The notes under the pieces: generated by a model
Seen by the model: the letters and a program-made list of their open reading frames with translations, nothing else
What the model was told of the DNA's origin: nothing
The model's database searches: none
Made by a program: the position numbers and the translations under genes
Shown here: positions 20,746 to 46,854 of the stretch, piece after piece
Layout of the letters: every line of letters starts with the position of its first letter
Numbering within the stretch: the stretch's first letter is position 1
Assembly (NCBI GenBank): GCA_965204925.1
Contig: OZ242021.1
Coordinates: 1,420,000 to 1,483,999, forward strand
DNA: 64,000 nt
Source: Candidatus Poriferihabitaceae bacterium
GTDB lineage: Bacteria; Pseudomonadota; Gammaproteobacteria; Arenicellales; Poriferihabitantaceae
Direction: 5' to 3'

Positions 20746-20747
20746 CC

Positions 20748-21977: not shown

Positions 21978-22046
21978 CGACAAATGCCGGGGCATATACA
22001 GACAACAATTTTTGAATTTTTACATACACTATCAGGAGTCAGGAAA

Positions 22047-23201
22047 ATGTTTGAATTGGTAGATACATTGAATCAACAGGCAACGATCAAGGTCATCGGG
22101 GTCGGCGGCGGCGGCGGCAATGCGGTCGAGCATATGATTGAGTCGCGGCTTGCAGAGGTCGAGTTCATCAGCGCTAATACGGATGAGCAGGTATTGGCGA
22201 AGTCGAACGCCAATACGGTCCTTCGGCTTGGAGAGAGTCTGACCAAGGGGCTTGGCGCCGGCGCCAACCCGGAGGTGGGGCGTCAGGCAGCGCTGGAGGA
22301 CCGCGAGCGTATCGGCGAGGTCATCGACGGGGCGGACATGATCTTTATTACCGCGGGTATGGGCGGAGGTACAGGAACGGGCGCTGCGCCCGTCATTGCC
22401 GAGGTCGCCCGCGAAAAAGAAGCGCTGACCGTAGCTGTGGTGACACGCCCCTTCCCTTTTGAGGGACAGAAACGCAAGGTGATTGCCAACCGGGGCATTG
22501 AAGAGCTCCAGGATTTCGTGGATTCGCTGATTATCATTCCCAACGAGAAAATCCTGGCAGTCATGGGACAGAATACCCCGCTGAGCGCTGCCTTCAAAAA
22601 TGCCAATGAGGTCCTGTTCAATGCAGTCCAGGGAATATCCGACCTCATTACCCGTCCGGGTATGATCAACGTCGATTTTGCGGATGTCAGGACAGTCATG
22701 GCGGAAATGGGCATGGCGATGATGGGGTCATCCACAATGTCCGGTGAAAACCGCGCGGCGGAAGCGGCCAGAAGAGCTATTTCCAGTCCATTTCTCGAAG
22801 AGGTCGACCTGAAAGGCGCGAAGGGATTGCTGGTCAATATTACTGCCGAGCCGGACATAACCATTGGTGAGTATGAAACGGTGGGCAACATCATTCATGA
22901 GTATGCGGCATTGGACGCCAATGTGGTTATTGGCGTGGGATTCGATCATGAGATGCAGGGTAATTTGAGAGTCACGATGGTGGCGACCGGGCTTGGTGGC
23001 GGCCGAACTTCGGAGAACCCCGGCGCGGGAGCACGTCTGGTTCCACTTGTTCCGCCGGTTCGGGCCCCCAGGGCCGCCAGCAATTCAAAACCTCATGATA
23101 TGCTGACGAGAGGATCGGGCAATCCCGGGACGGCGGGGCAAACCCAGTTGGATATGGACGACTACGATATCCCCGCATTTCTCCGGAAACAGGCGGATTA
23201 G
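22047..23201 (+). CDS. ftsZ: Cell division GTPase FtsZ
   Basis: ATG preceded by AGGAGTCAGGA. Motifs VIGVGGGGGNAV and the tubulin signature GMGGGTGTGAAPVIA. C-terminal peptide DIPAFLRKQAD. Confidence 0.97.
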   Translation: MFELVDTLNQQATIKVIGVGGGGGNAVEHMIESRLAEVEFISANTDEQVLAKSNANTVLRLGESLTKGLGAGANPEVGRQAALEDRERIGEVIDGADMIFITAGMGGGTGTGAAPVIAEVAREKEALTVAVVTRPFPFEGQKRKVIANRGIEELQDFVDSLIIIPNEKILAVMGQNTPLSAAFKNANEVLFNAVQGISDLITRPGMINVDFADVRTVMAEMGMAMMGSSTMSGENRAAEAARRAISSPFLEEVDLKGAKGLLVNITAEPDITIGEYETVGNIIHEYAALDANVVIGVGFDHEMQGNLRVTMVATGLGGGRTSENPGAGARLVPLVPPVRAPRAASNSKPHDMLTRGSGNPGTAGQTQLDMDDYDIPAFLRKQAD

Positions 23202-23352
23202 CCGAAACTGTACAATATTTTAATGTGTATTCAGGAATAAATCAGGTAAATTTAGTCGCGTGCGTGCAAGAAAAACCGGTTCAATTTGGCAGGATTTTGG
23301 AGTATTATCCACCTTTTTGTTCCGATGACAATTCGACTGGAACCGTGATTAA

Positions 23353-24264
23353 ATGATCAGACAACGCACCCTGAAAAATGTTATCCACGCTACCGGCATA
23401 GGCTTGCATACTGGCGAGAAAGTCTACCTCACCCTTGAGCCGGCTCCTGTTGATACGGGGATCGTATTCAAGCGTGTTGACCTTGATCCTGTCGTCAGTA
23501 TCGTGGCCCGCCCGGAAAATGTCAGCGATACCCGTCTGTCCACATCGCTGGAAAAACAGGGTGTCAAGATTTCCACGGTAGAGCATTTGATGTCCGCGTT
23601 TTCGGGGTTGGGAATTGATAACGTATATGTCGAGTTGAGCGCGCCCGAGGTTCCAATCATGGACGGTAGCGCCGGGCCTTTTGTTTTCCTGTTGCAGTCT
23701 GCCGGCATCCTCGAACAGAACAAGCCGAAGAGATTCATTCTCATCCGCAAACCGGTGCGTGTCAACGAGGGCGACAAATGGGCCCGCCTGGAACCATTCA
23801 ACGGATTCAAGGTCTCATTCGCCATTGATTTCAACCACCCGATCCTGAAGAACTCTGTGCAAATGGCGACGGTCGATTTGTCGACAACGTCGTTTGTAAA
23901 GGAGGTTAGCCGGGCCAGGACTTTCGGGTTCATTGACGAACTGGAGTCGTTGAGGGCGGCAGGACTGGTACAGGGCGGAAGTTATGATAACGCCATCGTA
24001 ATGGACGGGTTTCATATCCTCAATGATGACGGATTGCGTTACGAAGACGAGTTCGTCAAGCACAAGATTCTTGATGGCATTGGCGACCTGTATCTTCTTG
24101 GAGCGCCATTGATCGGCGCGTTCAGCGCCTGGAAATCAGGGCATAACCTGAACAACAAGTTGCTACGCAAACTGGTGGCAACGAAAAGCGCATGGGAGAT
24201 TGTGACTTTTACCGATGAAGCCGACGCTCCGGTTCCTTATCATCAACCGGCAGTCGCTATTTGA
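23353..24264 (+). CDS. lpxC: UDP-3-O-acyl-GlcNAc deacetylase
   Basis: 303 aa with [23 protein letters not shown] and [14 protein letters not shown]. Confidence 0.95.
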
Positions 24265-27741: not shown

Positions 27742-28965
27742 ATGGAAATCTCCCCTCTGGCGCCGCCCTGCTTCCCCGACCTTGAACACATAGCGGGTGT
27801 TCGTCTCTCGGTTGCGGCAGCCGGCATCAAGTATCCGGACCGGCACGACCTCATGCTGGCGCGGTTTGCGTCCTCTACTACTGTGGCCGGGGTTCTGACC
27901 CGTTCAAAAACCGCCAGCGCTCCCGTGTTGATGTGCCGCGAGCATTTGCGAGGGGGTCGGGCTGGCGCCCTCATTGTCAATTCGGGGAATGCCAACGCAT
28001 GTACCGGACAAGCCGGGGCGCTTCATTGCCGGATCATTTGCGAGGCGCTGGCGGACTCGCTGGGCTGCGACACCGGGGAAATTTTTATGGCGTCTACGGG
28101 GGTGATCGGAGAGCGGTTGCCGATACAGAGAATCAGAAACGTCCTTGCCGGATTGTGCGGCGGTCCGGCTGTCCGTTTCGAGGATGCGGCGCGCGCGATC
28201 ATGACCACCGATACCTTTGCAAAAGGGGCGGGAAGGACGAGCAATATCGGGGACACCCGCGTGCGAATCTGCGGGATTGCCAAGGGTTCCGGCATGATTG
28301 AGCCGGATATGGCGACCCTGCTGGCTTTCGTTTTTACCGACGCCCGGATTCCTGCCCGCCTGCTGCAAGCGCTGTTGCAAGATGCCAATGCCAATTCCTT
28401 CAATGCCATCACCGTCGATAGTGATACGTCAACCAGCGACACCTGTCTGTTGTTCGCGACCGGGAAAGCGGGCAATGCGGCTCCTTCCAGCATTGAAGAC
28501 GTTTCCCTCGACCGCTTCCAGCGCGATTTGCGAGCCTTGATGCTGGACCTGGCCGGGCAGGTCGTTCGGGACGGGGAAGGAGCAACAAAGCTGATCGAGG
28601 TGCGGGTAACGGGGGGCGCGGATGATACTGCCGCCAGGATGATCGCGAAATCGATCGCGAACTCGCCGCTGGTCAAAACGGCCATTGCCGGCGAAGACGC
28701 GAATTGGGGGCGAATTGTGATGGCGGTCGGCAAGGCGGGGATGCAGGTAGACTGCGACCGGCTCAGTATCAGCATGGGGGGCATTGCCATCGCCCGCAAC
28801 GGTCAGGTAGTCGAGGGCTATGATGAAAAGCGGGTTACCGCGCACTTGCAAGGACAGGATATCCGCATTGATGTGGATGTTGGCGTTGGCGCCAGTGAAT
28901 CCGTGGTGCGGACCTGCGACTTGACCCATGGCTATATCACGATTAATGCCGACTACCGATCCTGA
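27742..28965 (+). CDS. argJ: Bifunctional ornithine acetyltransferase / N-acetylglutamate synthase
   Basis: 407 aa with the autoprocessing site region PDMATLLAFVFTDA and a typical ...NADYRS C-terminus. Confidence 0.92.
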   Translation: MEISPLAPPCFPDLEHIAGVRLSVAAAGIKYPDRHDLMLARFASSTTVAGVLTRSKTASAPVLMCREHLRGGRAGALIVNSGNANACTGQAGALHCRIICEALADSLGCDTGEIFMASTGVIGERLPIQRIRNVLAGLCGGPAVRFEDAARAIMTTDTFAKGAGRTSNIGDTRVRICGIAKGSGMIEPDMATLLAFVFTDARIPARLLQALLQDANANSFNAITVDSDTSTSDTCLLFATGKAGNAAPSSIEDVSLDRFQRDLRALMLDLAGQVVRDGEGATKLIEVRVTGGADDTAARMIAKSIANSPLVKTAIAGEDANWGRIVMAVGKAGMQVDCDRLSISMGGIAIARNGQVVEGYDEKRVTAHLQGQDIRIDVDVGVGASESVVRTCDLTHGYITINADYRS

Positions 28966-29356
28966 CCGTATCCATGTCGCTGTTGGCGTTATACAAAATA
29001 GCGCCGGTGAACTGCTGATCCAGCAGCGTTTGCCCGGTCGCCCCTGTGCCGGGCAGTGGGAATTTCCGGGTGGAAAAATCGAAATGGGTGAATCGCCGGA
29101 AAGGGCGCTGATTCGTGAATTGGGGGAAGAGCTCGGGATTGTCGTTTCCGCTGTTTCCCGGTTTCTGCGCCACTGCCACGATTATGATCATGCCAGCGTG
29201 CTGTTGCATGTTTTTCTGGTGCGGGACTTCGGAGGGCGGGTGGAGAGCCGGGAGGGACAGAATATCAAGTGGAGAACTCTCGCTGAAATCCGGCAAATGA
29301 ATGTGCTGGCGGCGGTCCATCCGATCCTGTCGGCGCTCGATCAATGTCGTAACTGA
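28928..29356 (+). CDS. mutT: 8-oxo-dGTP diphosphatase (MutT-type Nudix)
   Basis: Nudix box GQWEFPGGKIEMGESPERALIRELGEELG. The real start is probably Met7 (28946). Confidence 0.85.
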   Translation: MAISRLMPTTDPDRIHVAVGVIQNSAGELLIQQRLPGRPCAGQWEFPGGKIEMGESPERALIRELGEELGIVVSAVSRFLRHCHDYDHASVLLHVFLVRDFGGRVESREGQNIKWRTLAEIRQMNVLAAVHPILSALDQCRN

Positions 29357-29467
29357 CTACTTGTGTGAAGGCTTGCGAAAGTCAGAGATCTCCGGATGCC
29401 CGACCCCTTAAACCCAGCCTGGTTTTTTAATGGATGAAAACCGGATGGGATTCGGGTAATGTTGCAT

Positions 29468-29495
29468 CACGGAAAGGCCTTCCTCCGTGTTTATT
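29468..29495 (+). terminator. Possible intrinsic terminator of argJ-mutT
   Basis: cacgga-N10-tccgtg (6-bp stem) followed by tttatt. It lies 110 nt after the mutT stop, exactly where base composition drops. Confidence 0.35.
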
Positions 29496-29993
29496 GTAGC
29501 TAACTGAATTATATCGAATGATCAGAGACCTTGCCGGCTCTTTATGCAATATCGGGGTTAATACAATAGGATGATGTTTTGCAAGCAGCAATAGTTTTGA
29601 AAAACAATACAAACTCATTAAAGTCACTATTTTTCGGTTTCTATGAAGCGTTAACCGAAACTCAACTTGAGCCTGTAATTGAAATAGCAGAAAGGGATTT
29701 CAATATTGACTGGGTTCCATACGGAGACATTAATAACTTACAACCGGAATTTCGAAATGAGCTATTCTATGGCCTCACGAGACAGACTCAAGAATGGCAA
29801 TGAATCAAAAAAACCAAGAGAGGAACTTGCCAAGACTCTGGCTCGGGGAAGGCTCAAAGAGATATATAAAGAAAAGTCTTCAAGTCTGCCGTCGAAGGTG
29901 AAAAATGCTGGGACGATCTGCAGGATAAGGCAATAGACTTTGGTTACGAATCAGTTATGTATCCATGGGGCCACAAAAATTTATGGATTGTTT

Positions 29994-32246
29994 ATGAAAA
30001 AAGTAGAAGATTTATTTAAGGCAAGAGCATCCAATCCACTGGATATTGCAATGCTCTACGATGGCCGCGTTGGGTTCACCATCCCCGAATATCAACGGCA
30101 GTACGATTGGTCCGAGGAAAACATCAAGAGACTATTCTGCGATACGTTAAATGGATTTCAAAGGCTTTCCGAAAGCGGCAATGACAACATCTTCACTTTT
30201 CTTGGCTCCTTGATATTGGTCGAAGAGAAAACCAGGGAGGAAAACTTTTCCGGTCAATCGGTAGCTATTGTTGATGGACAACAACGTTTAACTACTCTTA
30301 CCTTGTTTGCCTGTGCACTATGCGAGGCGCTTCGCGGATATCTTCCTGAACTTGATTCATTAGCTAACGACTCAAATATCAAGAGGTGGCTCGAAAAAGA
30401 AATAGAGGAGCGCCTTTATAAATTGTATAGATGCGCCATTGGGTCGCAGAATGTAACACCGACCCAGACATTTCCTTTCGCGCGTATAGTGCGACACGGT
30501 GACGCACGCGCCAAATCAAAGCCAGACTCGGAATACATATCGCCGGTCGGGAAATTTTTAGAAGGCTTTGCAGAATATTTTGAGAATGAGGACGTAGTAG
30601 AGTATGTACCACCTGCTCTGGGGGGAGGTACAGACGCTGGAAAACTGGCGAATAACTTTCAAATTATTCGAAAGTTACTCAGCAACCTGAACTGTACTGT
30701 GTGGTATGAGGACACCGAATGCGAACAGTTTGATATTGAATGGACGAGACGGGGCCAATGTCGTGATTTGTTCGAGCGTCTTCCCGATTTCATAAAGGAT
30801 GAGGGTGAAAGGAACAAGGCTATCGAAGAAATTATAAAAGGCTCTGCTCGCCACGAGTTATTCAGAACCCTGATGTTCTCTGCGTACTTCTGTCGTTACA
30901 TAGTTCTCACAACAGTCATAACGGAAGATGAGACCGCCGCATTTGATATTTTTGATGCTTTGAATACTACTGGCGAGCCATTGACCGCCTTGGAAACCCT
31001 GAAGCCGCGTGTAATTCAGTTTGAAAGTAAAAAATCCGGGTATGAGGGATCGGAATCTGAACTCAGCTTCAAAAAGATAAGTGAAAATCTTGATGAACGC
31101 TTTCCCGAAACATCGCGCAAGCAAACTGAAACCAAAGAATTGATAGTCACGTTTGCACTTTATCTCGAAGGGCAAAAACTCCCCAAAGATCTTGCCGCGC
31201 AAAGGAACTTCTTGAGAAGGAGTTACGATGGAGCAACTATAGGAGGCACAATATCTGCACAAAAATACGTAGAGGCGTTAGCCAAAGCGGCTGAATTCCG
31301 AAGATTTTATTGGGAAAGCGGTGGCATTGAAGAATTGGCAAAATTCCATAACCATGCGACAGTCGACGAAGTGCAGCTACTCACCTCTCTGACCAGTGAC
31401 ATGAAGACAAGTCTGGCGCTTCCAATTCTGTTGCGTTACTGGCAACCTGATCTGAAACAGGAAAACGACAAAGAAAACCGGTTTGTACAAGCACTCAAGG
31501 CAATAATTGCATTCGTCGTGATCAGGCGAGCCGCAACTGGCGGTACGGCCGGTATTGACAGCGACTTCAGGGCCATCATGGCCCCTTGCGAAGGACGCGG
31601 CGCAAGCAGGAAATTCGGGCTGTATGCCGGTATCGACAACAAAAATCCTGTCATGTCACCTGACGGTCTGAAGCAGGCGCTGAAAACACTGCTCCAACAT
31701 AAACTCAGAACGCTTGACAAGTCGAGGTGGATTGAGACTGTGGTGGCAAATCCACTGTATCAACAGTCGAAAGGTCTCGCCCGTTTCATGATACTGTCGG
31801 CAGGGCACCAGGCAATACCCTCGACCAATGAACCGGGAATCTGGGAAAAACCGGAAAGGATCAGCAAGCATACTAACGACTTCTGTAACTACCGTACCTG
31901 GAAGAACTCGTGTTATGCCACTGTTGAACACATCGCGCCGGATACAGTACCTGTACATGGATGGGAAACGGATTTGTACAAAGACAATATTTTGAGACAT
32001 TCCCTCGGCAATTTGATCCTCCTCCCGGAAAAAGAGAACGCGGCGATTAGCAGCGGGAGTTGGACCAAGAAAAGGATATTTTATTTGGCGCTTACTGAAA
32101 CATCCCCTGAACAACAAAGCAAAAGGTTTGAGGAAGCAAAATCAGCAGGTTTCAGCCTATCGAACAAAACAAAGAAACTCCTTGAGGATGGTTATCGCTT
32201 CTGGACCCTTTGCGTGATGTGGATGAATGGAATAGAGAGATTGTGA
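29994..32246 (+). CDS. sspE: SspE-like PT-sensing protein: N-terminal DUF262 (ParB-like NTPase) plus C-terminal DUF1524 His-Me/HNH nuclease (GmrSD architecture)
   Basis: DUF262 motifs IPEYQRQYDW and VAIVDGQQRLTTL. DUF1524 motifs ATVEHIAPD and LGNLILLPEKENAAISS. ATG at 29994 (MKKVEDLF); the track start at 29940 is a TTG. The tail appears frameshifted, and the frame may originally have ended at 32308. It lies next to sspABCD. Confidence 0.75.
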   Translation: MKKVEDLFKARASNPLDIAMLYDGRVGFTIPEYQRQYDWSEENIKRLFCDTLNGFQRLSESGNDNIFTFLGSLILVEEKTREENFSGQSVAIVDGQQRLTTLTLFACALCEALRGYLPELDSLANDSNIKRWLEKEIEERLYKLYRCAIGSQNVTPTQTFPFARIVRHGDARAKSKPDSEYISPVGKFLEGFAEYFENEDVVEYVPPALGGGTDAGKLANNFQIIRKLLSNLNCTVWYEDTECEQFDIEWTRRGQCRDLFERLPDFIKDEGERNKAIEEIIKGSARHELFRTLMFSAYFCRYIVLTTVITEDETAAFDIFDALNTTGEPLTALETLKPRVIQFESKKSGYEGSESELSFKKISENLDERFPETSRKQTETKELIVTFALYLEGQKLPKDLAAQRNFLRRSYDGATIGGTISAQKYVEALAKAAEFRRFYWESGGIEELAKFHNHATVDEVQLLTSLTSDMKTSLALPILLRYWQPDLKQENDKENRFVQALKAIIAFVVIRRAATGGTAGIDSDFRAIMAPCEGRGASRKFGLYAGIDNKNPVMSPDGLKQALKTLLQHKLRTLDKSRWIETVVANPLYQQSKGLARFMILSAGHQAIPSTNEPGIWEKPERISKHTNDFCNYRTWKNSCYATVEHIAPDTVPVHGWETDLYKDNILRHSLGNLILLPEKENAAISSGSWTKKRIFYLALTETSPEQQSKRFEEAKSAGFSLSNKTKKLLEDGYRFWTLCVMWMNGIERL

Positions 32247-32358
32247 ACCGGCGCGGCAAAAATATCGCAGAGTTGTGCTGGGACATGGTATGGCCATGGT
32301 TAAATTGACTATTTGTGACATGTCGGGCAAATCCTGATTACCCATACAGACCACGACG

Positions 32359-33744
32359 ATGCCCGAGTTTAAGAGGTCAGGTTTTGAGATTCCTTCGTGG
32401 ATTCGTTATGAAGATGGCCCTTATGCACATCAGGGAGAAGCCGTCAAAGCGTGGTTTGAAAACGGCTGTCAAGGCATTTTCTCCATTGCTACGGGAGGCG
32501 GGAAAACGCTTACCTCTTTAATCGCAGCCAGCCTTCTTTCGCGCAAACTGGATAAATTACTTGTAGTCATCGCCGTACCTACAACTGCCCTGCTAAACCA
32601 GTGGCAATCGGACGTGAGAGTTTTTTCCGTTAAGCCTGTCAATACATTAGGGTCAAGCGCAAAAACAGTAAAAAGGAGCCTGAAAGAGGCTGGAAGAAGA
32701 CTAAGGCTCAACTTGTCAAAAGTCGAAGCTCTCTTAATTACTCACGACTCTCTCAAAGGTAGTTATGCAGTACAAATTGAAGCGCTATCAAGAGATATTC
32801 CTGCCCTGCTAATCGGTGACGAGGTACACAATCTCGGGTCGGAAGGGTTCAGGAACTCCCCACCTGAATACTTCAAATACAGACTGGGGTTGTCTGCAAC
32901 ATATGAAAGGGCATTTGATGACGACGGTAACGTGTTTTTACTTGGTTATTTCGGAGATGTTGTGTTTGATTATCCATTGGAAAAGGCAATAGGAAATTGC
33001 CTCGTACCATACGAATATTACGCCCATGAAGTATCGTTATCTGCCGAAGAAGAGGAAGATTTCCTGGACATAACATATGAGATAAAGAAAATCTCATATG
33101 CAAACAACCTCTCAGATGGAGACGAAACAAAAGAATATCTGAAAAGGCTCTTCCTGAAGAGGCGCCGAATAATTGAGTCCGCATCGCAGAGGGTGGATAT
33201 TTTCGATAAGATACTACCGCTATCGAAAGGCGACATACGCAGGACACTAATATTCTGTACCGACAAATTCCCGGAGCAATTGGACAAGGTGAATGCTGTA
33301 TTGAACACCAGAAGGCTGGAGTTTCATCAAATAACACAAGAAGAAACACAGAACTCAAATACACTAAAGCGCCTGATAAGCTCATTTGGTGATGGCGATT
33401 TACATGCATTAACATCTAAAAGGGTTCTTGATGAGGGGTTCAATGTCCCCCAAACTGAGGTGGCCTACCTTCTGGCTAGCCAGACCGGAAAAAGACAATG
33501 GATACAACGGTTGGGCCGAATCCTAAGACTTTCGCCATCAACAAACAAGCAAAAGGCCGTATTACACGATTTGGTGGTAATTCCACCGTCCCTTGATGAA
33601 TCCTTTGATGAAGATTTCAAGTCGATGGTCGGGTCCGAGCATGAAAGAGTGACGTTTTTTACAAAACTAAGCCAAAACGGCCTGGAAGAAAACGGATCAA
33701 TATATCTTGCAAATAAACTTTTGAATTTGTTGAGGAAAAAATGA
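32359..33744 (+). CDS. SF2 (DEAH/ResIII-type) helicase core with no recognisable nuclease domain
   Basis: Motifs: YAHQGEAV (Q), ATGGGKT (I), GDEVHNLG (II), LSAT (III) and QRLGRILR (VI). 461 aa. Confidence 0.8.
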   Translation: MPEFKRSGFEIPSWIRYEDGPYAHQGEAVKAWFENGCQGIFSIATGGGKTLTSLIAASLLSRKLDKLLVVIAVPTTALLNQWQSDVRVFSVKPVNTLGSSAKTVKRSLKEAGRRLRLNLSKVEALLITHDSLKGSYAVQIEALSRDIPALLIGDEVHNLGSEGFRNSPPEYFKYRLGLSATYERAFDDDGNVFLLGYFGDVVFDYPLEKAIGNCLVPYEYYAHEVSLSAEEEEDFLDITYEIKKISYANNLSDGDETKEYLKRLFLKRRRIIESASQRVDIFDKILPLSKGDIRRTLIFCTDKFPEQLDKVNAVLNTRRLEFHQITQEETQNSNTLKRLISSFGDGDLHALTSKRVLDEGFNVPQTEVAYLLASQTGKRQWIQRLGRILRLSPSTNKQKAVLHDLVVIPPSLDESFDEDFKSMVGSEHERVTFFTKLSQNGLEENGSIYLANKLLNLLRKK

Positions 33745-33950
33745 CGGTTTCATTTAGAAAAGTAAATTCAATGATTGAATCGGAAGTATCGAATCAAGAA
33801 TTCAGTGAGGAGCAAAAGAAAATACTCGGTGACTTGTGCAAGAAAATATATTTGATCGAATCCAGCATGGAAAGAATCAGCAGTCAAATAGTAAGTGATA
33901 TAAAGGGACAAATATCTCTGAAAGCAGACGACTTTCGGAAGGCATCATGA
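33741..33950 (+). CDS. 69-aa hypothetical protein, translationally coupled on both sides
   Basis: ATGA overlaps with the helicase stop (33741-33744) and with the next start (33947-33950). Hydrophilic, predicted helical, with no motif recognised. Confidence 0.55.
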   Translation: MTVSFRKVNSMIESEVSNQEFSEEQKKILGDLCKKIYLIESSMERISSQIVSDIKGQISLKADDFRKAS

Positions 33951-36082
33951 AGTTAATCAGCGCAACCTTCAAAAACTTCAGGCTCTTGAAAGACTTGACC
34001 CTGGAGTTCTCCACTGATGAAAAAAAGCCGTTGACAGTGATCCGGGCAGCAAACGAAACGGGAAAAACGACTTGTGAGTATGGCTTAATCTGGGCTTTAT
34101 ACGGGTCCAAGGCACTACCCGGCAAGAATGAATTTTCGCTGTTTCCGGCTGACCTTAAGTCTAAAGGAGAAAGAAAGGCCGAAATAGCGGTAGAAATTGA
34201 GTTTAGAACGGAACACTCCAGAGGTTTTGGAAAAGGTTCACATAACTTGGGTTCTTCGGATTACCGCTTAATCCGATCCTGCGTTGAATACGCCAACACC
34301 GAATCCGGCATCCAGCGCGAGTCGGAGCATCGCAGAATGTTTGAAATATCACCCTCCGGGAGTAAGCGTCTTGACTCAGAAGAGACAGAAAGGGTGATCG
34401 AAAACTCTCTGCCCGCATCGTTAAAAGATGTTTATTTTACCGACGGCGATAGCGCGATGTCTTTTATTGAGGCTGCTGCGGCACGAGGAGTAAAAAGAAA
34501 GCGTGTCAGTGGTGCAATAGAAGCGTTGCTCGCAATAGATGCTCTTAATACTACAGTTAAGCACTTGGATAAGGTGTCGAAGAGTTTCGGGCAAGAAATG
34601 GACAACACCGATTATACGGCTGCGCTTGAACGACTGAATGACAGAATTGGAGGGTGGACCGAAGATATTTCTGAGTGGGAAGAGCAATCCTCTATCTTTG
34701 AAGATCAAAAAAAATCCGGCGAAAAAGAACTACGAACAACCAGAGCCCAACTGGAAGAGGCATTGAAACTGGGAGACAAAGAGAAACTGATCGACGAAAT
34801 GCGCTCCACCATGCGCCAAATAAAAAACTATGAAATAAACGCTAAAACAGAACTCCAGCAAATTGCCTCACTCACCTGCAATAAGCAGACGTCGAAGATT
34901 TTCTTAGGCGCTCTTGCAAGCAAAGCAAAAGATTTACTCTACAATCTCAACGAAGAAAAGCAGCTACCGAAAGTTAATATTCCCATTCTGGAAGAACTGC
35001 TGGACAGCAAATCATGCTTTTGCGGCGCAGATTTAAGGAAAGATAGTGAAGAAGGGAGAACTAGACGAGCAAAAATTGAGGAGGCTATTTCCTCCAGTCA
35101 GGAATCTGACATGATTCAAGAGTGCGCTACCAGTTTGTTTTACAGGGTGCGCAGTGAAGCATTCGATATCACTGAAAACAACTGGATTAAAGACTATACC
35201 GCACAACAGGGGATGTATCAGAATACCGTATCTTCTCTTCGTACAGCGGAAAGGAAGTACTCTGAACTGGATTCCTCAATCAAAGATCTGAATGACAGGA
35301 TGGTCAATCAACTCAAAGAGCAAGAAGAAACACTTGCTAATTCCATTGCGAAAATAAACCGGTTATTAGGCGCAAAAGCTACCCAGATAAAAGATGCTAC
35401 CGGTAGAAAAAAAGAAGCGGAAGAAGAGAGAACAAAAATTGAAAAAAGGCTCGGAAAAATAGATTCCTCCGCGGGGAAACTGAACCTGTCCCGATACGCA
35501 CAATCTATATTCAAATCAATTATCGACAGAATGAAGGATGAGGAATTACAAAAAGTCAGCGCCGAAATGAATAGAATATTCCTTGAGATGATCGGCGCCG
35601 ACCCCGTAAGAAATGATTTAACCCTGATTACAGAAGCCAGATTGACGGATGACTACGACATTGTTGTTTTCGGCCCAGGTCGACATCAACTGGACCCCGA
35701 CCAGGATATTAATGGCGCATCAAGACGCGCCATAACTTTGGCTTTTATTCTTGCACTGACCAAGGTATCTGAAGTTGAGGCGCCTAATGTAATCGACACG
35801 CCACTCGGCATGATGTCCGGATATGTAAAGCAATCCGTATTGCTCCAAACCATTAAGGAGGGGTCACAAACTATTTTATTCCTGACACATGACGAAATTA
35901 AGGGCGTTGAAGAAGTTCTGGACCAGTACGCAGGTAAAGTTTGCACACTAACCAATCCAGCACATTATCCCAAAATACTTAAAAACGAACCCGGCGTTAA
36001 AGATGCCAGAATTATCAAATGTGCATGTAACCACAATCAAGTATGTGAAATCTGCGAAAGGAAAAAAGTGGAGACCGCTTGA
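33947..36082 (+). CDS. DndD-like SMC/RecF-type ATPase
   Basis: N-terminal Walker A (VIRAANETGKTT), VYFTDGDS (cf. the DndD FFDGE motif), a long K/E-rich coiled-coil middle, and C-terminal ASRRAITLAFILAL plus VIDTPLGMMSG (cf. the DndD DTPLGRLD motif). Terminal Cys cluster CACNHNQVCEIC. Confidence 0.75.
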   Translation: MKLISATFKNFRLLKDLTLEFSTDEKKPLTVIRAANETGKTTCEYGLIWALYGSKALPGKNEFSLFPADLKSKGERKAEIAVEIEFRTEHSRGFGKGSHNLGSSDYRLIRSCVEYANTESGIQRESEHRRMFEISPSGSKRLDSEETERVIENSLPASLKDVYFTDGDSAMSFIEAAAARGVKRKRVSGAIEALLAIDALNTTVKHLDKVSKSFGQEMDNTDYTAALERLNDRIGGWTEDISEWEEQSSIFEDQKKSGEKELRTTRAQLEEALKLGDKEKLIDEMRSTMRQIKNYEINAKTELQQIASLTCNKQTSKIFLGALASKAKDLLYNLNEEKQLPKVNIPILEELLDSKSCFCGADLRKDSEEGRTRRAKIEEAISSSQESDMIQECATSLFYRVRSEAFDITENNWIKDYTAQQGMYQNTVSSLRTAERKYSELDSSIKDLNDRMVNQLKEQEETLANSIAKINRLLGAKATQIKDATGRKKEAEEERTKIEKRLGKIDSSAGKLNLSRYAQSIFKSIIDRMKDEELQKVSAEMNRIFLEMIGADPVRNDLTLITEARLTDDYDIVVFGPGRHQLDPDQDINGASRRAITLAFILALTKVSEVEAPNVIDTPLGMMSGYVKQSVLLQTIKEGSQTILFLTHDEIKGVEEVLDQYAGKVCTLTNPAHYPKILKNEPGVKDARIIKCACNHNQVCEICERKKVETA

Positions 36083-36514
36083 ATGTCAGATAACCCATTC
36101 GCGGCATACGATGTAGAAATACCGAAAAAGTATGCCGCAGACATCAAGAAATACTGCCAGACAGGCGGCAGTAAAGAAACATACGAGTTTGCGCCTTTTA
36201 ACAGGCAGGTTGACCTGTGGTATTTCGCTTTCCTTTATGCTGTCAAAAATAATCTTGAACCGGTAACTGAAAAAGAGACAAGTAACATTACACCAGCTAC
36301 AATTTTATCTGGTGATTCGTATCGTATTGATCATATACAGCTTGCCTGGCTGGCTGCTACCAACTCAATCAAAGAATTAGCCAATCACAGGAAAGCATTT
36401 GATTATGCTCTTTCAATGGCTAACGCCGGGTTCCCGCATGTACTTCAGTTACTCAGAGACCCGGATGACAATCCTCTTTGGTCGATATTGGATGAAATTG
36501 AAAGGACTGTCTAA
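36083..36514 (+). CDS. 143-aa hypothetical protein occupying the position DndE holds next to DndD
   Basis: Its ATG abuts the DndD-like stop (TGA|ATG). No motif was recognised. Function is inferred only from context. Confidence 0.55.
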   Translation: MSDNPFAAYDVEIPKKYAADIKKYCQTGGSKETYEFAPFNRQVDLWYFAFLYAVKNNLEPVTEKETSNITPATILSGDSYRIDHIQLAWLAATNSIKELANHRKAFDYALSMANAGFPHVLQLLRDPDDNPLWSILDEIERTV

Positions 36515-36568
36515 AACGGGGGATGGCTCTGGATTTTTTCGAGTGCATCGGAACGAATAACGTATTGA

Positions 36569-37423
36569 CTATTTATGGCATGCCAAGCAAATTTTGGCTT
36601 GCCCGTACAGGTCATCAATGTCCAGGGGATCGTTATCGGGGCGTAAAGGGTTGGGCTGTATTTTGGACCGAAGGCGTAGAAGACGTTGTTCGTGCTCCTG
36701 CCTGATTTGCTTGACCCGCTCCGGCCTTTCCAGTTCCTCCAGTGATTCTCCCTGGCTCCATGTAAATGGGGAACCGTGCTCAACGGAGTTTTTTTCGTAT
36801 GCTTTTGCTTCTTCGAATGCTTCGGGGTGTTGTTCTTTCAGGCGAACCCACTCAATTTTCTGCTGAAAGAAGCAAAAGGTACAACCACTGCGGGTTCGCC
36901 ATGAGTAGTATGCCGGCAAACCCAGCCCGGCGCTGTCGAGGATCTCAAGAACACCGGACTTGTCGATACCGGCTCCCTTGAAAGGCAGGCGCACGACCAG
37001 CCTGTCGTTCCTGGAGGCATAACCTTCACGATACTCCTCGTCTGAACGAATGGCAACATAACTGTAGATGGTTTCCCCGGCTTCGAGCATGGGACGAAGC
37101 CAGTGCTCAAACGGTCGAAGTTTCAATTGCCTCGTACACCAACGGCTCTGGGGTGAGGGTAAAAAATCATTGTACTGTTTAAGCCAGAAATCAAAATCCC
37201 GGTCGGGATTCAGCCATAATATTGGCTGACCTAAAAAACCCTCCAACCGCCCGAGATATTCGTATACCTCCGGCAATTCCTTGCCAGTGTCCGTAAAAAA
37301 ATATTCCATGTTGAGCTCCGGGTGATTCTGCCGCATGTAAACAGCAAGAGCAGCGCTGTCCCGCCCGCCGGATAAACCGAGCACATGTCGTTCCATGTTC
37401 ACCACGACCGGGATGCCCTCCAC
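36569..37423 (-). CDS. sspD: SspD, PAPS-reductase/ATP-pyrophosphatase family (PP-loop)
   Basis: PP-loop LSGGRDSAA, CTRQLK and SGCTFCF. 284 aa from GTG 37423. An alternative ATG at 37396 lies 2 nt after the sspC stop. Confidence 0.8.
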   Translation of the reverse strand: MEGIPVVVNMERHVLGLSGGRDSAALAVYMRQNHPELNMEYFFTDTGKELPEVYEYLGRLEGFLGQPILWLNPDRDFDFWLKQYNDFLPSPQSRWCTRQLKLRPFEHWLRPMLEAGETIYSYVAIRSDEEYREGYASRNDRLVVRLPFKGAGIDKSGVLEILDSAGLGLPAYYSWRTRSGCTFCFFQQKIEWVRLKEQHPEAFEEAKAYEKNSVEHGSPFTWSQGESLEELERPERVKQIRQEHEQRLLRLRSKIQPNPLRPDNDPLDIDDLYGQAKICLACHK

Positions 37424-40400
37424 TCCTTTCGCCCATTCTCTGTGGAATGATCCGTCACCACTGCCTTGAGGTAATGGGCACTCAGTTCAGCCAGTGCAGC
37501 AAGGATTATATTACGTCGCTTTTCACCACTACAGTTGAGCGCTTCTCCCACTTTTTTGATCAACGCATCCACTTCCACCCATTCCAGATCAGTAATGGTA
37601 AATTCATCATGAACGGGGGTCGGTCGGCCATCCATACCAACCACCACTGCCATGGCGTGTCGTTTGTCAGGCCGTCCTTTTACACGTGCATATGTTTCAG
37701 CGCGGATGAATTTCTGCGCCAAATCGACAAGTCCCACCGTTGTCCGGTCAAGATCAGGGTCAATCCAGTGACGGGGCGGCTTGCTTGCTGCCAGACTGGC
37801 AATGGACTCGAAACAGGCGTCGCTATCATTGAACTGTGCAAGCCTGCCAATAAAAGCCTCAAGCCTGAAGTCTCCGGCAATTTGCCGGACATTTTCGGCA
37901 CGGTCACGTAATTCCGTCAAGGATTTTGGAGAAGTATTGGGCACTTGCAACTCTGCAAGCATGGCATCGCGCAACCGATGAAGCATTGAGGGATAGGCGT
38001 GAACCAATTCCTCAAGACCCTCGCGAACATTTCTTACAATATTGCAAATGGCGCCCTCACTGATAAAGGTAATATCCTCGCCAAGAATTCCGGGGACATC
38101 GTCGAACAGGAACTTGTTCGGATCCCGCGCACGCTTGAACATATCACGGATACTTACCGCGTTTGTAGACAACCGCATGGTCCGTTTGGTCCATGACGGC
38201 AGCCCTTCATAGATCGCCACGAGACCACGAGCCACATCAATAGGTTCCAGGAGAACAAGCCGGTTAGCGTCATCCAGATCACGCACGATTGCTGCCATGT
38301 CTGATAAAAGTCGGCGTGATATATCGGTCAAGTCCATCCACCTCAATTGAATGGAGTCTGCATCCTTTGCCAGATAATCAACATCTACATCGTCAAACCG
38401 GGCTTTGAACACGCCTTCCCGGTAAATAGCCAATTTATCACGTTGGGACAATATAAATGCTACAACGAGAATCGTCATCAAACCATCCTTGACACCGAAA
38501 GGTGGTTTACGCCAGAGATCAAAAAGCGCAGAAACAGCAACAGTCCGACTGGCTTTTTCTTTTACGAATTCAAGTGCAGCCTCCCACAAAGGGAATAAAT
38601 AGCAGGGGTCGGAGTCCTTCCCCGGGGGGCTGAATTGCCAACCTTCGTTGTTCTGTCTGTAAAGTTTGGACTGTTCCAGTATTGAGGAAAACAATCCACC
38701 TTCCGCCGGGAATCCTGTAATTCCAAGTCTCGGTTCCCCTTCTCTCAAAACCATCTGCCGCAATAAAATATTTTGTGCCGCAATGGCGCTTCCCGACGGT
38801 TTCTGTCGATTCAACAATTCGTTATGCAGGCGCGGGCATTGATCAAAACGACGCCCCGCCAATTCGGATGCAGTATTATTCAAACCGGCCTGTCGAAGGT
38901 GTCTGGCTGTACGATTTTTGTCAAACCATAACGCATTATCCAAAGTTTTGTGCAATTCAACTTCAAGCAGAGACTGCACATCCGCAAGACGCGCCGAAAC
39001 CTCCCGTCTCGCCACAGAATCACCAGCCAATTCTGGATGTCGGCTACTTACCAATTCCAAGGCGAGCAACTCACGGGCTAATGGAATAATAGCCCGCGAC
39101 GCTTTCGACATACCAACCACGCTATCCCGGGGCCCGCTGTAACTTGCCGCTTCACAGCAAAGTTTTTTTATTTCCTCCTCACTTTCACTTGCGGTCGGTA
39201 TTGCGAGCAAAAATTGACCCATTGCGCTGTTTCCAGGCTGGAAACGCCTGACCGAATCAACAAGAGTGTTAACCGGCACAATATGCACCTCAAACCATCG
39301 AAACGCCCCGGTCTCATGATAGTGATACTTGGCAACAATGGGTTGGATACCCGCAAGCGATTCGAGTGCATTAAAATCAATCTCACCTACTTCTTCGAAC
39401 GCCAGTCGTGTGGCCTGATCAATATCGAAATCACTCCCGGCAAAAATAGTATGAGCTTCAAGGAATTTCTTGAAGATCGTGAATGACCACTTATCCAGTT
39501 GGGACAGGGCTCCCTGGAGTTTACGGGAGGATATTTCAGGGAAACAGGTTTTTAGCAATTCGAAACTCGCAGCAAGCCCTGAACGTTCCTTGAATAAATC
39601 CATGACAGCAATGGTTTTCAATAGTTTGACATGAAGTTCATCACCACCCAAAGACTCACATCGTTCAAGCGCCTCGGCCGCCAAAGCCCAACGATGTCCG
39701 TCCGGTGATGCCAGGATGGATGGTTCCAGGTTGGCGCGAAGATAATCCCACAGCATATCCGGGCTATACAATTCATTCTCTTTGGCACGCTTTAGAAAAT
39801 CCTGAAACCCATACAGCTCCGACGAGTTCAGAAAACCGAATATGCTACGCTGGTTCTGTCCGAAGCGCCGCCGGGAAATGGGGCCCAGCAAGAAAGCAAC
39901 GACCGGGTGCAACGGCCAGCAGGCAGCGAGCATTGAAACCAGCCTCGTGGCATCCTCACAAATCCGGTCACGCCGGGCGAGCCTTACAACCGAAAACGCA
40001 AGAGTGTCCTGCTTTTTCGTAGTATGGTCGCTCTCTATTGCATGGGAAATCAGGCAGATTTGTTCTTGACCTGATGTGTCCACAACAAGGTCGATGAATC
40101 GACCCTGTATCTTCACCCATTCATTTCGCATTTCATACGGGAGTCGATGCGCGTATCCATCAAATGTTTGATGCAGCACGCCGACAATCAGGAATCGCCC
40201 CTTACTGCGTGAGGCCAGTTCCGCGAGTTGCTGCAGGATGTATATATCCGAGCCGCTCTGAGCCGCGGCTTCGAGAAACTTGCCCATCTCGTCAATGAAG
40301 AGAACCAGTCCGCCGTGGGTCTTCGGTTTACACGCGGCGGCATCAGTAAGCGCCGCTATCAGGTTGCTCTCGGTCCAACCGCCGCGCGGCCTGCGCGGCA

Positions 40401-40809
40401 CAATCCCGTTTTGTCTGGCGGCCTCACCGATGACGGTGACGGGATTTTCCCGCCTGCCGACTACAGGAAGGGTACGCCACCCTTTGGGACCCGTCGGTAA
40501 AAGTTCCCGGATCCTGTTTGTCAGGTTCTGTCCAAATACTTTCGCCGCCCGCTTCTGCAATCCAGAGTCACCACTCAACAACGCAGCAAGCGCAACAGCC
40601 AAACTGGATTTACCGCTACCATAGGGGCCAGTCCAGGTGAACGCACTCTGTCCGGTCTCGGACACATGCCGCGCCATGGTTACCAGAACTTCCGCCGACG
40701 ATTGCGGGCAGACAAAGCCATCAAGTGCATGGATGCTCCCGAGGTCGGCGTCTATGCGGACCGATCTCAGAAAACGGCGAGCTATGCGGACCCGGTCTTT
40801 CAAAAACAT
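37399..40809 (-). CDS. sspC: SspC, large P-loop ATPase
   Basis: Walker A GPYGSGKSS and Walker B LVLFIDEMGK. About 1136 aa from the ATG at 40809. That ATG overlaps the sspB stop (TGATG) and is preceded by GAGGAGGAGG. Located between DUF4007 and PAPS-reductase genes, as in sspBCD. Confidence 0.75.
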   Translation of the reverse strand: MFLKDRVRIARRFLRSVRIDADLGSIHALDGFVCPQSSAEVLVTMARHVSETGQSAFTWTGPYGSGKSSLAVALAALLSGDSGLQKRAAKVFGQNLTNRIRELLPTGPKGWRTLPVVGRRENPVTVIGEAARQNGIVPRRPRGGWTESNLIAALTDAAACKPKTHGGLVLFIDEMGKFLEAAAQSGSDIYILQQLAELASRSKGRFLIVGVLHQTFDGYAHRLPYEMRNEWVKIQGRFIDLVVDTSGQEQICLISHAIESDHTTKKQDTLAFSVVRLARRDRICEDATRLVSMLAACWPLHPVVAFLLGPISRRRFGQNQRSIFGFLNSSELYGFQDFLKRAKENELYSPDMLWDYLRANLEPSILASPDGHRWALAAEALERCESLGGDELHVKLLKTIAVMDLFKERSGLAASFELLKTCFPEISSRKLQGALSQLDKWSFTIFKKFLEAHTIFAGSDFDIDQATRLAFEEVGEIDFNALESLAGIQPIVAKYHYHETGAFRWFEVHIVPVNTLVDSVRRFQPGNSAMGQFLLAIPTASESEEEIKKLCCEAASYSGPRDSVVGMSKASRAIIPLARELLALELVSSRHPELAGDSVARREVSARLADVQSLLEVELHKTLDNALWFDKNRTARHLRQAGLNNTASELAGRRFDQCPRLHNELLNRQKPSGSAIAAQNILLRQMVLREGEPRLGITGFPAEGGLFSSILEQSKLYRQNNEGWQFSPPGKDSDPCYLFPLWEAALEFVKEKASRTVAVSALFDLWRKPPFGVKDGLMTILVVAFILSQRDKLAIYREGVFKARFDDVDVDYLAKDADSIQLRWMDLTDISRRLLSDMAAIVRDLDDANRLVLLEPIDVARGLVAIYEGLPSWTKRTMRLSTNAVSIRDMFKRARDPNKFLFDDVPGILGEDITFISEGAICNIVRNVREGLEELVHAYPSMLHRLRDAMLAELQVPNTSPKSLTELRDRAENVRQIAGDFRLEAFIGRLAQFNDSDACFESIASLAASKPPRHWIDPDLDRTTVGLVDLAQKFIRAETYARVKGRPDKRHAMAVVVGMDGRPTPVHDEFTITDLEWVEVDALIKKVGEALNCSGEKRRNIILAALAELSAHYLKAVVTDHSTENGRKEWRASRSW

Positions 40810-41771
40810 CAGGCAGCCTCCTCCTCTTCGACAGGCGAAGCATAGTCGCACCGCAACCAGGAAGAAAACTTCTCTTCACAAATATCAATGTTGCGGATGA
40901 CCTGTTTGAGTCCGGCAGTTTCCGACCACCGGAGTGCGCCACTCGTAACATCATCAAGTACAGCAAGGCGGTCAACTACATCGTTCTCGTCGAATTGGAA
41001 CACGCGCCCCGGACTTCCCGGCGCATAGGCTATGGCTTCGAACGACAATGTAGTGCTGTCAGAATAAAAACGAGTCCAGAAATCAATGAGGGCGTAGACA
41101 AAAACACCTTCCCCCAAGGTCGATTTCGGGCCGCGCACAAAACGGAAACCATCGTTTTTTCCTACGGCCTTGACGAGCCCCAATTCGGTCAATGGCGACT
41201 CCGGAGCGTCATCATGCCCGGTCTTTCCGAACGGTTGCCGTGCAGCATAGGTGCGAATGAAACAAGCGACATCATTCTTGAGTGTGGTTTGCGCCACGTG
41301 TGGCCACCCGTGTTCACTCGCAAGACGACCAAGCTTCCTGATCAGGCCGTCGCGCTCAAAGGTAATGGCAGGATAGTGACTGAATGCCCAGAACCATGTC
41401 GTCCGTTCAGGGTACGCCGCAAATTGCCAATGCAACAGCCACAAAGTAGCCGGAAACTCCATCCACGGATCAAGGCCGTTTGAACCGAAAAGCATCCGGC
41501 CAAACTCGGTTGTTTCAACCTTATTGAGGACAGGCTCCCGGATAATGTGCGCCGCCTTCGCCCAATACCGTATTGAGCCTACCATATTTTTCCCGACACC
41601 GAATCGGGCTATGGCATCTTCTCCCCAACACAGGGATTTATTATCGGACTCGTTCTCGGTTTCCGCAACCCGATCAAATGCTTTTTTCAGCCAGCCGTAG
41701 CGTAGCGGGAATGTCTCATGACCCGAGAAATGCGGACGATAGTTTGGCTCATAAAGCGACCTGTATGGCAT
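40809..41771 (-). CDS. sspB: SspB, DUF4007-family protein (PT-system nickase)
   Basis: N-terminal FSGHETFPLRYGWLKKAF matches the DUF4007 signature. Start set at Met22 (41771), preceded by AGGAAG. The longest ORF starts at 41834 without an RBS. Confidence 0.75.
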   Translation of the reverse strand: MPYRSLYEPNYRPHFSGHETFPLRYGWLKKAFDRVAETENESDNKSLCWGEDAIARFGVGKNMVGSIRYWAKAAHIIREPVLNKVETTEFGRMLFGSNGLDPWMEFPATLWLLHWQFAAYPERTTWFWAFSHYPAITFERDGLIRKLGRLASEHGWPHVAQTTLKNDVACFIRTYAARQPFGKTGHDDAPESPLTELGLVKAVGKNDGFRFVRGPKSTLGEGVFVYALIDFWTRFYSDSTTLSFEAIAYAPGSPGRVFQFDENDVVDRLAVLDDVTSGALRWSETAGLKQVIRNIDICEEKFSSWLRCDYASPVEEEEAA

Positions 41772-41951
41772 CTCGGACTTCCTGTATGACAAAAGCTTAT
41801 GTTTATTCCTGGATGACTCATCCAGCGCCCTCATAGTAATGTACAGAATATGCTATAGTCAAACCGGTATAAGGCGTTCTGCTTCTCGAACTCTGATTAG
41901 TAAGTCCGTACATGTCAAACTTGGAGTCTCTTCTTCTATCTAATTGAATTA

Positions 41952-43142
41952 ATGAGAGTTTCTGAAACTATTTACCTTGACTATCAAGCGACGACTCCGG
42001 TCAATCAGCACGTTTTGGACAGGATGCTACCGTATTTTAGAGAATTATTCGGTAATCCGCACTCTGCCCATAGTCCCGGCTGGGAAAGCTCGCTTGCCGT
42101 AGAACAGGCGACAGCGCAAATTGCCAGTTTGATCGGGGCTGATCCCGATGAGATTATTTTCACGTCAGGAGCCACCGAGGCAAATAACATGGCATTGCTG
42201 GGTCTTGCCAGACACACGCATCCTGAAAGCAAGAGAAGGCGGTTTATATTCAGCGAAATTGAACATAAGTGTGTTCTTGCAGTCGGGCATGTGCTTTGCG
42301 GTCAGTTTGGCTTCCAGGTAGACCGGCTTCCTGTTGACAAACAGGGTCGCGTTATACTGACGCAGCTGCAAGAGGCTTTGGATGAAGATGTGCTCGCCGT
42401 ATCCATTATGTTAGTCAATAACGAAATTGGAACGATACAGGACATTAAACAAATTTCTGAAGCAATCAGAAAATCGGGCGCAATATTTCATTGCGACGCC
42501 GCACAAGCGCCTGCTTCGATGGATTTACGAGGGATTGCTGAGGATGTGGATATTTTGAGCCTTTCCGCGCACAAAATGTACGGCCCAAAAGGTATTGGCA
42601 CACTCTATATACGCCGTGAGTTACAGGACCACATAGAGCCGCTCATCTATGGCGGCGGGCAACAAAAAGCCTTGCGATCAGGTACTGTGCCTACTCCTTT
42701 GTGTGTCGGCATGGGTGTCGCAGCCGAGCTTATGAGCGATCAGGAAATTGAGCAAAAACGCACATTCCTGCGCAATCGTAGGGATTATTTTATTGAACAA
42801 TTAACCGGCTTGCCGTGGCCAGCCCTGTTGAATGGTTGCATCGGGGAAAACCGTCATCCCGGCAATATCAACATCTGTTTCAGTGGGTTTTCGGCGGATG
42901 ATATTCTGATGGCTCTGCAACCCCGCCTTGCCGCTTCGACCGGGTCTGCATGTACATCCGGAATCACTGAACCCTCTCATGTTCTCAAAGCTATCGGCTT
43001 GACCCACGAAGACGCTACGGCATCCATACGGTTCAGCCTTGGCTTCGAAACAAGCGATCAGGATATTGATGAAGCCGTGAACCTGATGAAAACGGCGCTG
43101 GGCAGGCTTTCAAATACCAGGTACAGGCTGGCCAGCAAATAG
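41952..43142 (+). CDS. sspA: Cysteine desulfurase (NifS/IscS class; SspA/DndA role)
   Basis: PLP-lysine motif SLSAHKMYGPKG and catalytic Cys STGSACTSG. Divergent from sspB, with intermediate GC. Confidence 0.8.
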   Translation: MRVSETIYLDYQATTPVNQHVLDRMLPYFRELFGNPHSAHSPGWESSLAVEQATAQIASLIGADPDEIIFTSGATEANNMALLGLARHTHPESKRRRFIFSEIEHKCVLAVGHVLCGQFGFQVDRLPVDKQGRVILTQLQEALDEDVLAVSIMLVNNEIGTIQDIKQISEAIRKSGAIFHCDAAQAPASMDLRGIAEDVDILSLSAHKMYGPKGIGTLYIRRELQDHIEPLIYGGGQQKALRSGTVPTPLCVGMGVAAELMSDQEIEQKRTFLRNRRDYFIEQLTGLPWPALLNGCIGENRHPGNINICFSGFSADDILMALQPRLAASTGSACTSGITEPSHVLKAIGLTHEDATASIRFSLGFETSDQDIDEAVNLMKTALGRLSNTRYRLASK

Positions 43143-43361
43143 ACAGAGCAGAGCTTTTCGACATTTGAGAGCGTTTACAGCCGAGACGGATCAACAAGTC
43201 TGCTGCCGAGGTAACCGAAAAAATCAGTCAGAATAAAAAATCCGAACGGCCCGTTTTTCCTGTATCGGATATTCATTCATGTGGTGGCCAGACGAGATTC
43301 CGGCGGTATTCTGATTTCATACATGGGGAGAGAAAACGACACTATATTCGGTTTCGGGCGC

Positions 43362-45358: not shown

Positions 45359-45360
45359 TC

Positions 45361-46812: not shown

Positions 46813-46854
46813 CGGTAAACGGTTGCAGGATAAATATATTGAAAAGTCGGAGCG

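Follow-up and report, generated by a model that had tools for sequence, protein, structure and literature searches.

PbeABCD is a four-gene cassette of the CxC ABC ATPase-DndE systems, in which PbeA combines an HKD nuclease with a superfamily 2 (SF2) helicase, PbeB is a small disordered protein, PbeC is a CxC ATPase and PbeD is a DndE cognate; these systems are already described as 'mix and match' partners of modification modules (Rakesh et al. 2024, PMC10853773). Together with the DNA phosphorothioate (PT) genes DndCDEA, PbeABCD acts in a PT-dependent manner, with DNA cleavage not detected and residual protection from pbeBCD alone, and 58% of PbeAC pairs were found to be 'solitary' relative to dndCD in that study, which predates the description of Ssp (PMC6459918). 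Among sspBCD clusters, 84% carry neither sspE nor sspFGH, and further partners have been predicted (Wang et al. 2021, PMC8092258). Here we analyzed a locus in which SspABCD, SspE and PbeABCD lie side by side, in a stretch of 64,000 nucleotides from Candidatus Poriferihabitaceae bacterium (GCA_965204925.1, contig OZ242021.1, positions 1,420,000 to 1,483,999), hereafter the window. The components of this locus are known, the pairing of Ssp with Pbe is conserved in related loci but uncharacterised, and the window copy is damaged.

The locus resembles DndCDEA-PbeABCD of Haloterrigena jeotgali A29 (PMC6459918), with which it shares the four-gene order, a PbeB of ~66-70 aa, a PbeD of ~145-150 aa, tightly coupled coding and adjacent PT-writing genes; it differs in that the writer is SspABCD, PbeA lacks the PLD/HKD domain, the PbeC match is moderate and sspE is also present. 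With the CxC ABC ATPase-DndE conflict systems (PMC10853773) it has in common a CxC Zn-hook at the coiled-coil apex, a small fast-evolving protein, an SF2 helicase and a gene at the DndE position. The partners described for those systems are Dnd modules and cytosine methylases, whereas the partner in the window is Ssp, with an ORC/Cdc6-type SspC and a DUF4007 SspB. The literature searched, which left Krishnan et al. 2020 outside its range, contained nothing on CxC-DndE systems partnered by Ssp or by a BREX type 4-like set. The locus also resembles SspABCD-SspE (PMC9646914) in having full-length SspA, B, C and D and an SspE with DUF262 and DUF1524, but its sspE is frameshifted and lacks the last 37 residues, and sspE and sspD are separated by a second effector cassette. 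As in SspABCD-SspFGH (PMC8092258), one PT writer is accompanied by more than one restriction module, but the partner is Pbe-type and not DndFGH-like. A likeness to BREX type 4, a PT-based BREX (PMC12914056), appears in two related loci (L019 and L036; L numbers denote related loci throughout), which join SspB/C/D-like genes, PglZ and BrxL to Pbe, whereas the window has neither PglZ nor BrxL.

An earlier sequence-only reading of this stretch had proposed an operon of five genes, which we number 1 to 5. The window sequence contained five co-directional open reading frames (ORFs) with exactly the coordinates and lengths it had given, including ATGA overlaps at 33741 and 33947 and a TGA/ATG abutment at 36080-36085. 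PADLOC and Pfam likewise bore out its assignment of gene 1 as an SspE-type DUF262/DUF1524 protein, gene 2 as an SF2 helicase and gene 4 as a DndD-like ATPase, with scores far above chance. Gene 1 matched SspE in PADLOC (5.2e-304, profile positions 1-728 of 766), contained both GmrSD_N and GmrSD_C (DUF262/DUF1524) in Pfam, and reached 33-35% sequence similarity with SspE structures already solved (matches to 6jiv and 20yv). Gene 2 matched PbeA (PADLOC, 1.7e-129), with the match confined to profile positions 253-668 of 672, and also matched NCBIfam TIGR04095, 'DNA phosphorothioation system restriction enzyme' (2.7e-97); its Pfam domains were ResIII, DEAD and Helicase_C. Gene 4 matched PbeC over its full length with a moderate score (PADLOC, 1.9e-51, 174 bits) and DndD less well (8.4e-24), carried AAA_23 (Pfam), and showed a Walker A motif (GKTT) and a CxC motif (C357-F-C359, residues 357-359) that were invariant in 20 homologues.

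The 69-aa and 143-aa proteins encoded by genes 3 and 5 had zero family matches in PADLOC, Pfam and NCBIfam, even at E <= 10. These genes occupy the PbeB and PbeD positions, and their sizes are near the published 66 and 152 aa (PMC6459918). The 69-aa ORF overlaps both of its neighbours, evolves fast and has a counterpart in most related loci (27-76% identity), and the locus comparison showed that the position and size of the 143-aa gene downstream of pbeC are kept in all loci. No DndE sequence match for the 143-aa protein was obtained in Pfam, NCBIfam, PADLOC or PDB, and a PDB profile search with PbeD homologues returned noise only. DndE structures were among the weak Foldseek matches of its AF2 model (pLDDT 90; TMt 0.53-0.59, E of at least 4.9), and on this predicted fold PbeD is a plausible DndE relative. 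Judged by profile matches, position and size, genes 2-5 are PbeABCD, the already named PT-linked module that the earlier reading had mentioned as a possibility. The outcome that it had named as a refutation, all five genes assigned at full length and in order to one published system, was not obtained: they belong to two published systems, and two of the five are not full length.

Separately from the CxC hook, residues ~686-703 of PbeC (window 36000-36060) contain a Cys/His cluster, R-C-x-C-x-H-x3-C-x2-C-x-R, that was present in 20/20 aligned homologues and is without mention in the papers examined. This C-terminal cluster may be a zinc knuckle.

We then compared the window with its closest locus, L003, a metagenome contig with 82% nucleotide identity. 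The order in L003 is GHKL ATPase, sspE (772 aa), a 142-aa ORF, pbeA (714 aa), pbeB, pbeC and pbeD, converging on sspD and sspC. Two colinear blastn blocks were obtained, 29972-32349 with L003 2173-4555 and 32362-40288 with L003 5842-13799, and ~1287 bp of L003 between them was missing from the window. The missing segment holds a 142-aa ISNCY-family transposase fragment (NCBIfam) and PbeA residues 1-254, that is, the HKD domain. Gene 2 had no PLDc_2 match in Pfam, and tblastn found HKD coding sequence nowhere in the window. The listed PbeA homologues at 70-85% identity were 708-714 aa long and carried PLDc_2 (PF13091), while the 461-aa form, here called PbeA', was represented by one sequence on one contig among the listed relatives. 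In an alignment of 24 homologues, the columns of the HKD motif (H..K, HGS.N) hardly vary. The ATG of pbeA' at 32359 coincides with the deletion junction, at a codon that in relatives specifies Leu within '...PIALPEFKG...', and a Shine-Dalgarno-like sequence was present at pbeB, pbeC and pbeD and absent at the pbeA' start.

A separated PbeA was also observed in L006 (187-2307), where 139 nt separate an ORF for the HKD domain (206 aa) from one for the helicase (453 aa). This contig is from a long-read assembly of 3x, so the split may be an indel error and not natural.

The second lesion was located in sspE. Relative to L003, a 7-nt deletion at about 32231 puts the ORF out of frame near residue 735, and the last 40 codons lie in the -1 frame at 32186-32305, followed by a stop at 32306-32308; this tail is 90% identical to L003 and stop-free. 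With tblastn, two high-scoring segment pairs in different frames were obtained, and the displaced tail (residues 733-772, ending ...LSLLDPLRDVDEWNREIVNRRGKNIAELCWDMVWPWLN and stop) is no longer joined to the ORF. The window ORF is without the conserved 37 C-terminal residues and falls short of the ~770 aa of an intact SspE. Since the lost tail is conserved through its final residue in the solved DUF262/DUF1524 homologue PDB 20yv_A, the window ORF is without a conserved structural element. Programmed -1 frameshifting was considered and rejected, as the sole slippery-like heptamer, CCCTTTG, is in the wrong register. The arrangement that the earlier reading had taken as a new hybrid operon, an SspE nuclease with a nuclease-free motor, is unique to this genome among the listed close relatives and is best explained by gene decay, the ~1.29-kb deletion having removed the nuclease half of PbeA and the frameshift having clipped SspE.

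The third lesion lies upstream of sspE, in a GHKL ATPase gene of which residues 1-44, 423-474 and 678-710 of the 816-aa L001 protein remain, with a 665-bp internal loss among the missing parts. Compared with its intact relative, the window gene is a pseudogene remnant. Three independent lesions thus fall within 2.8 kb, and by contrast the four ssp writer genes are full length, with near-complete profile coverage of SspA, SspB, SspC and SspD in PADLOC and end-to-end alignment with relatives. The DndC and DndD models scored far below the Ssp and PbeC models, and the dndC, dndD and dndE neighbours of the published DndCDEA-PbeABCD were not present, their place being taken by sspD, sspC, sspB and sspA. 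From its gene content, the Ssp PT writer looks intact.

Next, we assessed how widely Ssp and Pbe occur together. A single-sequence locus search returned 2 loci only, and an alignment-based search was needed. The alignment-based scan of one genome per species gave 31 loci with PbeA 40-85% identical, and with metagenome contigs the set came to 36 distinct loci; the distant helicase matches L002, L037 and L038 (23-30% identity) were excluded because PbeC was absent nearby. Ssp-type PT genes (SspB/C/D, or BREX type 4-like) were found within 10 kb in 32/36 loci by tblastn, with PADLOC applied to ambiguous cases. Of the four remaining loci, three have truncated flanks; L021 alone lacks Ssp genes although both of its flanks are present. 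The arrangement varies: sspBCD-pbeABCD are co-directional with gaps of a few nucleotides in L004, L009, L013, L016, L023 and L028, pbeABCD precedes sspBCD in L017, L020 and L026, and the two are convergent in L001, L011, L018, L024, L039 and the window. SspE was detected in only 7/36 loci, on either side of the cassette, so that the suggested teaming of SspE with Pbe does not describe most Ssp-Pbe loci. Sequence identity to the window was discordant between the modules, with Pbe at 65-81% and Ssp at 27-45% in L004, and Pbe at about 35-56% and Ssp at about 68-88% in L006, L011 and L018; this discordance indicates module exchange. The adjacency to an Ssp rather than a Dnd module, which the earlier reading had singled out, is therefore real and conserved in relatives, and no description of the pairing was found in the literature searched, although Krishnan et al. 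2020 or Xiong et al. 2020 may mention one.

Two further observations were made on these related loci. In L019 (1-9900), L036 (1313-8533) and L032 (1-1052), the Pbe cassette immediately follows a BREX type 4-like set, represented in L032 by BrxL-like ORFs, and BrxL is short (466 aa). A pair consisting of a DUF262-only protein (~434-467 aa, NsnA-like in PADLOC) and a Ser/Thr protein kinase (PD-T4-6-like) recurs at variable positions beside Ssp-Pbe loci, in L040 (12158-14344), L041 (10752-12938) and L012 (6610-8879), and may be a further accessory module.

We favour, with a probability of roughly 60%, the reading that the locus is a composite island, built from an Ssp PT writer and two effector modules, in which the writer is intact and the effector arm is decaying through loss of the HKD domain, truncation of SspE and loss of the GHKL gene. 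In this island SspA would supply sulfur, SspB, SspC and SspD would install PT, and SspE would be a candidate PT-dependent effector in which a DUF262 NTPase sensor is joined to a DUF1524 HNH nickase. PbeC, as a CxC Zn-hook ABC ATPase, and the DndE-like PbeD are probably DNA scanners, PbeA would normally be an SF2 translocase fused to an HKD nuclease, and the small PbeB is probably regulatory. The ancestral order, still kept in relatives, was presumably sspE, insertion sequence (IS) remnant, full-length pbeA, pbeB, pbeC and pbeD, converging on sspD, sspC and sspB, and then sspA. From this state, a ~1.29-kb loss between sspE and pbeA, maybe IS-associated, would have removed the HKD domain, the 7-nt deletion would have cut the 37 C-terminal residues of SspE, and the upstream GHKL gene would have become fragmented. 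Because the lesions lie in the effector arm and the writer is intact, the present state is most likely one in which modification is proficient and restriction is weakened or lost, the usual path to an 'orphan' modification system.

Several observations weigh against simple decay, and they are the same ones that would suit functional remodelling, in which PbeA'BCD would be a nuclease-free, PT-guided translocase or clamp that blocks phage replication and maybe borrows SspE or another nuclease. PbeA' retains every invariant helicase residue of the 24-homologue alignment, and its lineage-specific amino-acid change is no higher than that of neighbouring genes, a weak test in that, with the window as outgroup to L001 and L003, a similarly long branch is seen for every one of its genes, which leaves the relative-rate count uninformative. 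An in-frame ATG stands exactly at the PbeA domain boundary, the downstream overlaps are kept, and the consensus scan gave no terminator-like site between sspE and pbeA'. Elsewhere, a naturally HKD-less PbeA was found only in L019 and L032, in each case immediately after BrxL. As viral DNA was not degraded by PbeABCD and pbeBCD alone conferred low-level resistance in the published system (PMC6459918), the loss of HKD need not, by analogy, abolish Pbe activity. Given that the helicase shows no excess change and keeps its invariants, pbeA' could still be in use, or the deletion could be recent. Remodelling is nevertheless unlikely, if possible. Among the listed close relatives the HKD-less architecture is unique to the window genome; the catalytic HKD motif shows almost no variation across the PbeA family; the adjoining lesions truncate the supposed partner SspE and destroy the GHKL gene; the pbeA' start differs from those of pbeB, pbeC and pbeD in its missing Shine-Dalgarno-like sequence; and the rarity of SspE in Ssp-Pbe loci speaks for a Pbe that is independent of it.

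A broader proposal is that SspBCD-PbeABCD, including its BREX type 4-linked variants, is a distinct, widespread and uncharacterised PT pairing of Gammaproteobacteria in which a CxC ABC ATPase/DndE-like scanner reads Ssp-written PT marks, with the window as a working HKD-deletion variant. Taken as a whole we regard this proposal as distinctly doubtful. If it were true, the HKD nuclease would be dispensable and Pbe would act by replication block, possibly together with SspE.

It is improbable that the 7-nt and 1.29-kb gaps are sequencing or assembly errors and that the real genome has an intact L003-like locus. The high identity and open frame of the displaced sspE tail are what an unreal, or very recent, frameshift would leave. 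However, errors do not typically take the form of a 7-nt indel away from any homopolymer or of a clean 1.29-kb loss that has no repeats at its edges, and with the further 665-bp loss in the nearby GHKL remnant the clustering of three lesions fits decay better.

The notion that the operon mirrors a dnd-like modification operon (a DndB-like ParB-fold protein, X, DndD, DndE) with the DndC sulfurtransferase swapped for a helicase has almost no chance of being right: the positional similarity is superficial, even though PbeC and DndD are sister clades and PbeD is taken to be a DndE cognate (PMC10853773), and the comparative data contradict it, in that the helicase is PbeA, the canonical partner of a CxC ATPase-DndE pair (PMC10853773), SspE is absent from most such loci and variably placed, and the sulfurtransferase of the island is SspD next door.

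With decay of the effector arm as the preferred reading of the window copy, what merits further work is the conserved Ssp-Pbe linkage, including its BREX type 4-linked form. Tests of PbeABCD have so far paired it only with DndCDEA, which writes double-strand PT, and two mechanisms are in dispute: replication block without cleavage, and restriction by the HKD nuclease. A conserved linkage with Ssp would account for part of the sspBCD clusters that have no known restriction partner, and, as PT in the studied Ssp systems sits on one strand only, it prompts the question how a DndD/DndE-like scanner would read such marks. The window itself mainly illustrates the decay of a restriction arm with the writer kept, and it supplies a natural HKD-less pbeA allele with which the need for the nuclease could be tested.

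The related loci also bear on the history of the island. In L006 the stop codons of sspE and sspD directly adjoin, and a ~48-bp copy of the 3' end of sspD is attached to sspE both in L003 and in the window, with the real end of sspD 4-5 kb off, beyond pbeD. Together, this copy and the abutting stops of L006 suggest, from sequence comparison, that a pbe cassette and an IS were inserted between convergent sspE and sspD. The segment upstream of pbeA differs among loci: L003 has a GHKL ATPase, sspE and the IS remnant, the window has GHKL fragments and sspE, L001 has a GHKL ATPase and a 119-aa ORF at the position of the L003 IS remnant, without sspE, and L039 has an acetyltransferase gene, also without sspE.

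In L001, the closest genome, the region upstream of an intact Pbe cassette (927-8261) encodes a methyltransferase fused to a BsuBI/PstI HTH, a PIN protein, an ORC/Cdc6-like AAA ATPase (389 aa) and the 816-aa GHKL (HATPase_c_3) protein. The AAA ATPase and the GHKL protein had no significant PADLOC match (the AAA ATPase was marginal at about 5e-4 to 9e-4), and they may be an undescribed defence pair.

The features of the island are given in Table 1. Its GC content over ~29.4-43.2 kb is 0.43-0.49, against about 0.55, and it occupies 29357-43300 between mutT (NUDIX, 28928-29356) and coaE (43362-43991, minus strand).

Table 1. Coordinates of the features of the Ssp-Pbe island in the window, with the evidence for each
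Feature	Position	Strand	Evidence
GHKL (HATPase_c_3) ATPase gene fragments	29597..29968	+	blastn vs L001, L003; tblastn; Pfam on L001 protein
sspE (DUF262 NTPase + DUF1524 HNH nuclease), 750 aa, frameshifted near codon 735	29994..32246	+	PADLOC, Pfam
Displaced sspE 3' end, -1 frame, residues 733-772	32186..32308	+	second tblastn HSP (high-scoring segment pair), frame translations
Degenerate second copy of sspD 3' end, ~48 bp	32305..32352	.	blastn + alignment
Junction of ~1.29-kb deletion (approximately L003 4562-5841)	32350..32361	.	blastn colinearity, junction alignment
pbeA', SF2 helicase/translocase part of PbeA, 461 aa	32359..33744	+	PADLOC PbeA, TIGR04095
pbeB-position small protein, 69 aa	33741..33950	+	position + size
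pbeC, CxC-type ABC ATPase, 711 aa	33947..36082	+	PADLOC PbeC
pbeD-position protein, 143 aa, candidate DndE cognate	36083..36514	+	position downstream of pbeC
Terminator-like hairpin + T-run directly after pbeD	36517..36541	+	consensus scan; regional site count not above chance
sspD, PAPS-reductase-like sulfurtransferase	36569..37423	-	PADLOC SspD 3.7e-135
sspC, BrxC/ORC-Cdc6-type ATPase	37399..40851	-	PADLOC SspC E=0, 1303 bits
sspB (DUF4007)	40809..41834	-	PADLOC SspB 4.4e-104; Pfam DUF4007 6e-83
sspA, cysteine desulfurase	41952..43142	+	PADLOC SspA 2e-133; Pfam Aminotran_5

The promoter and terminator scan of the region gave sites at chance level, and folding of the sspE-pbeA' spacer and of the 48-bp repeat was not significant. 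Neither a tRNA gene nor an integrase nor a flanking direct repeat was detected in the window, and a megablast of the island against complete E. coli genomes returned zero matches. Housekeeping genes lie on both sides: upstream ftsA and ftsZ of the dcw genes (both confirmed), then lpxC, secA, argJ and NUDIX/mutT, and downstream coaE, a prepilin peptidase gene and the suf operon. Two segments are ordinary housekeeping DNA, 8203-24264 with the dcw cell-division cluster and then lpxC, and 44876-48979 with an Rrf2-family regulator followed by sufB, sufC and sufD.

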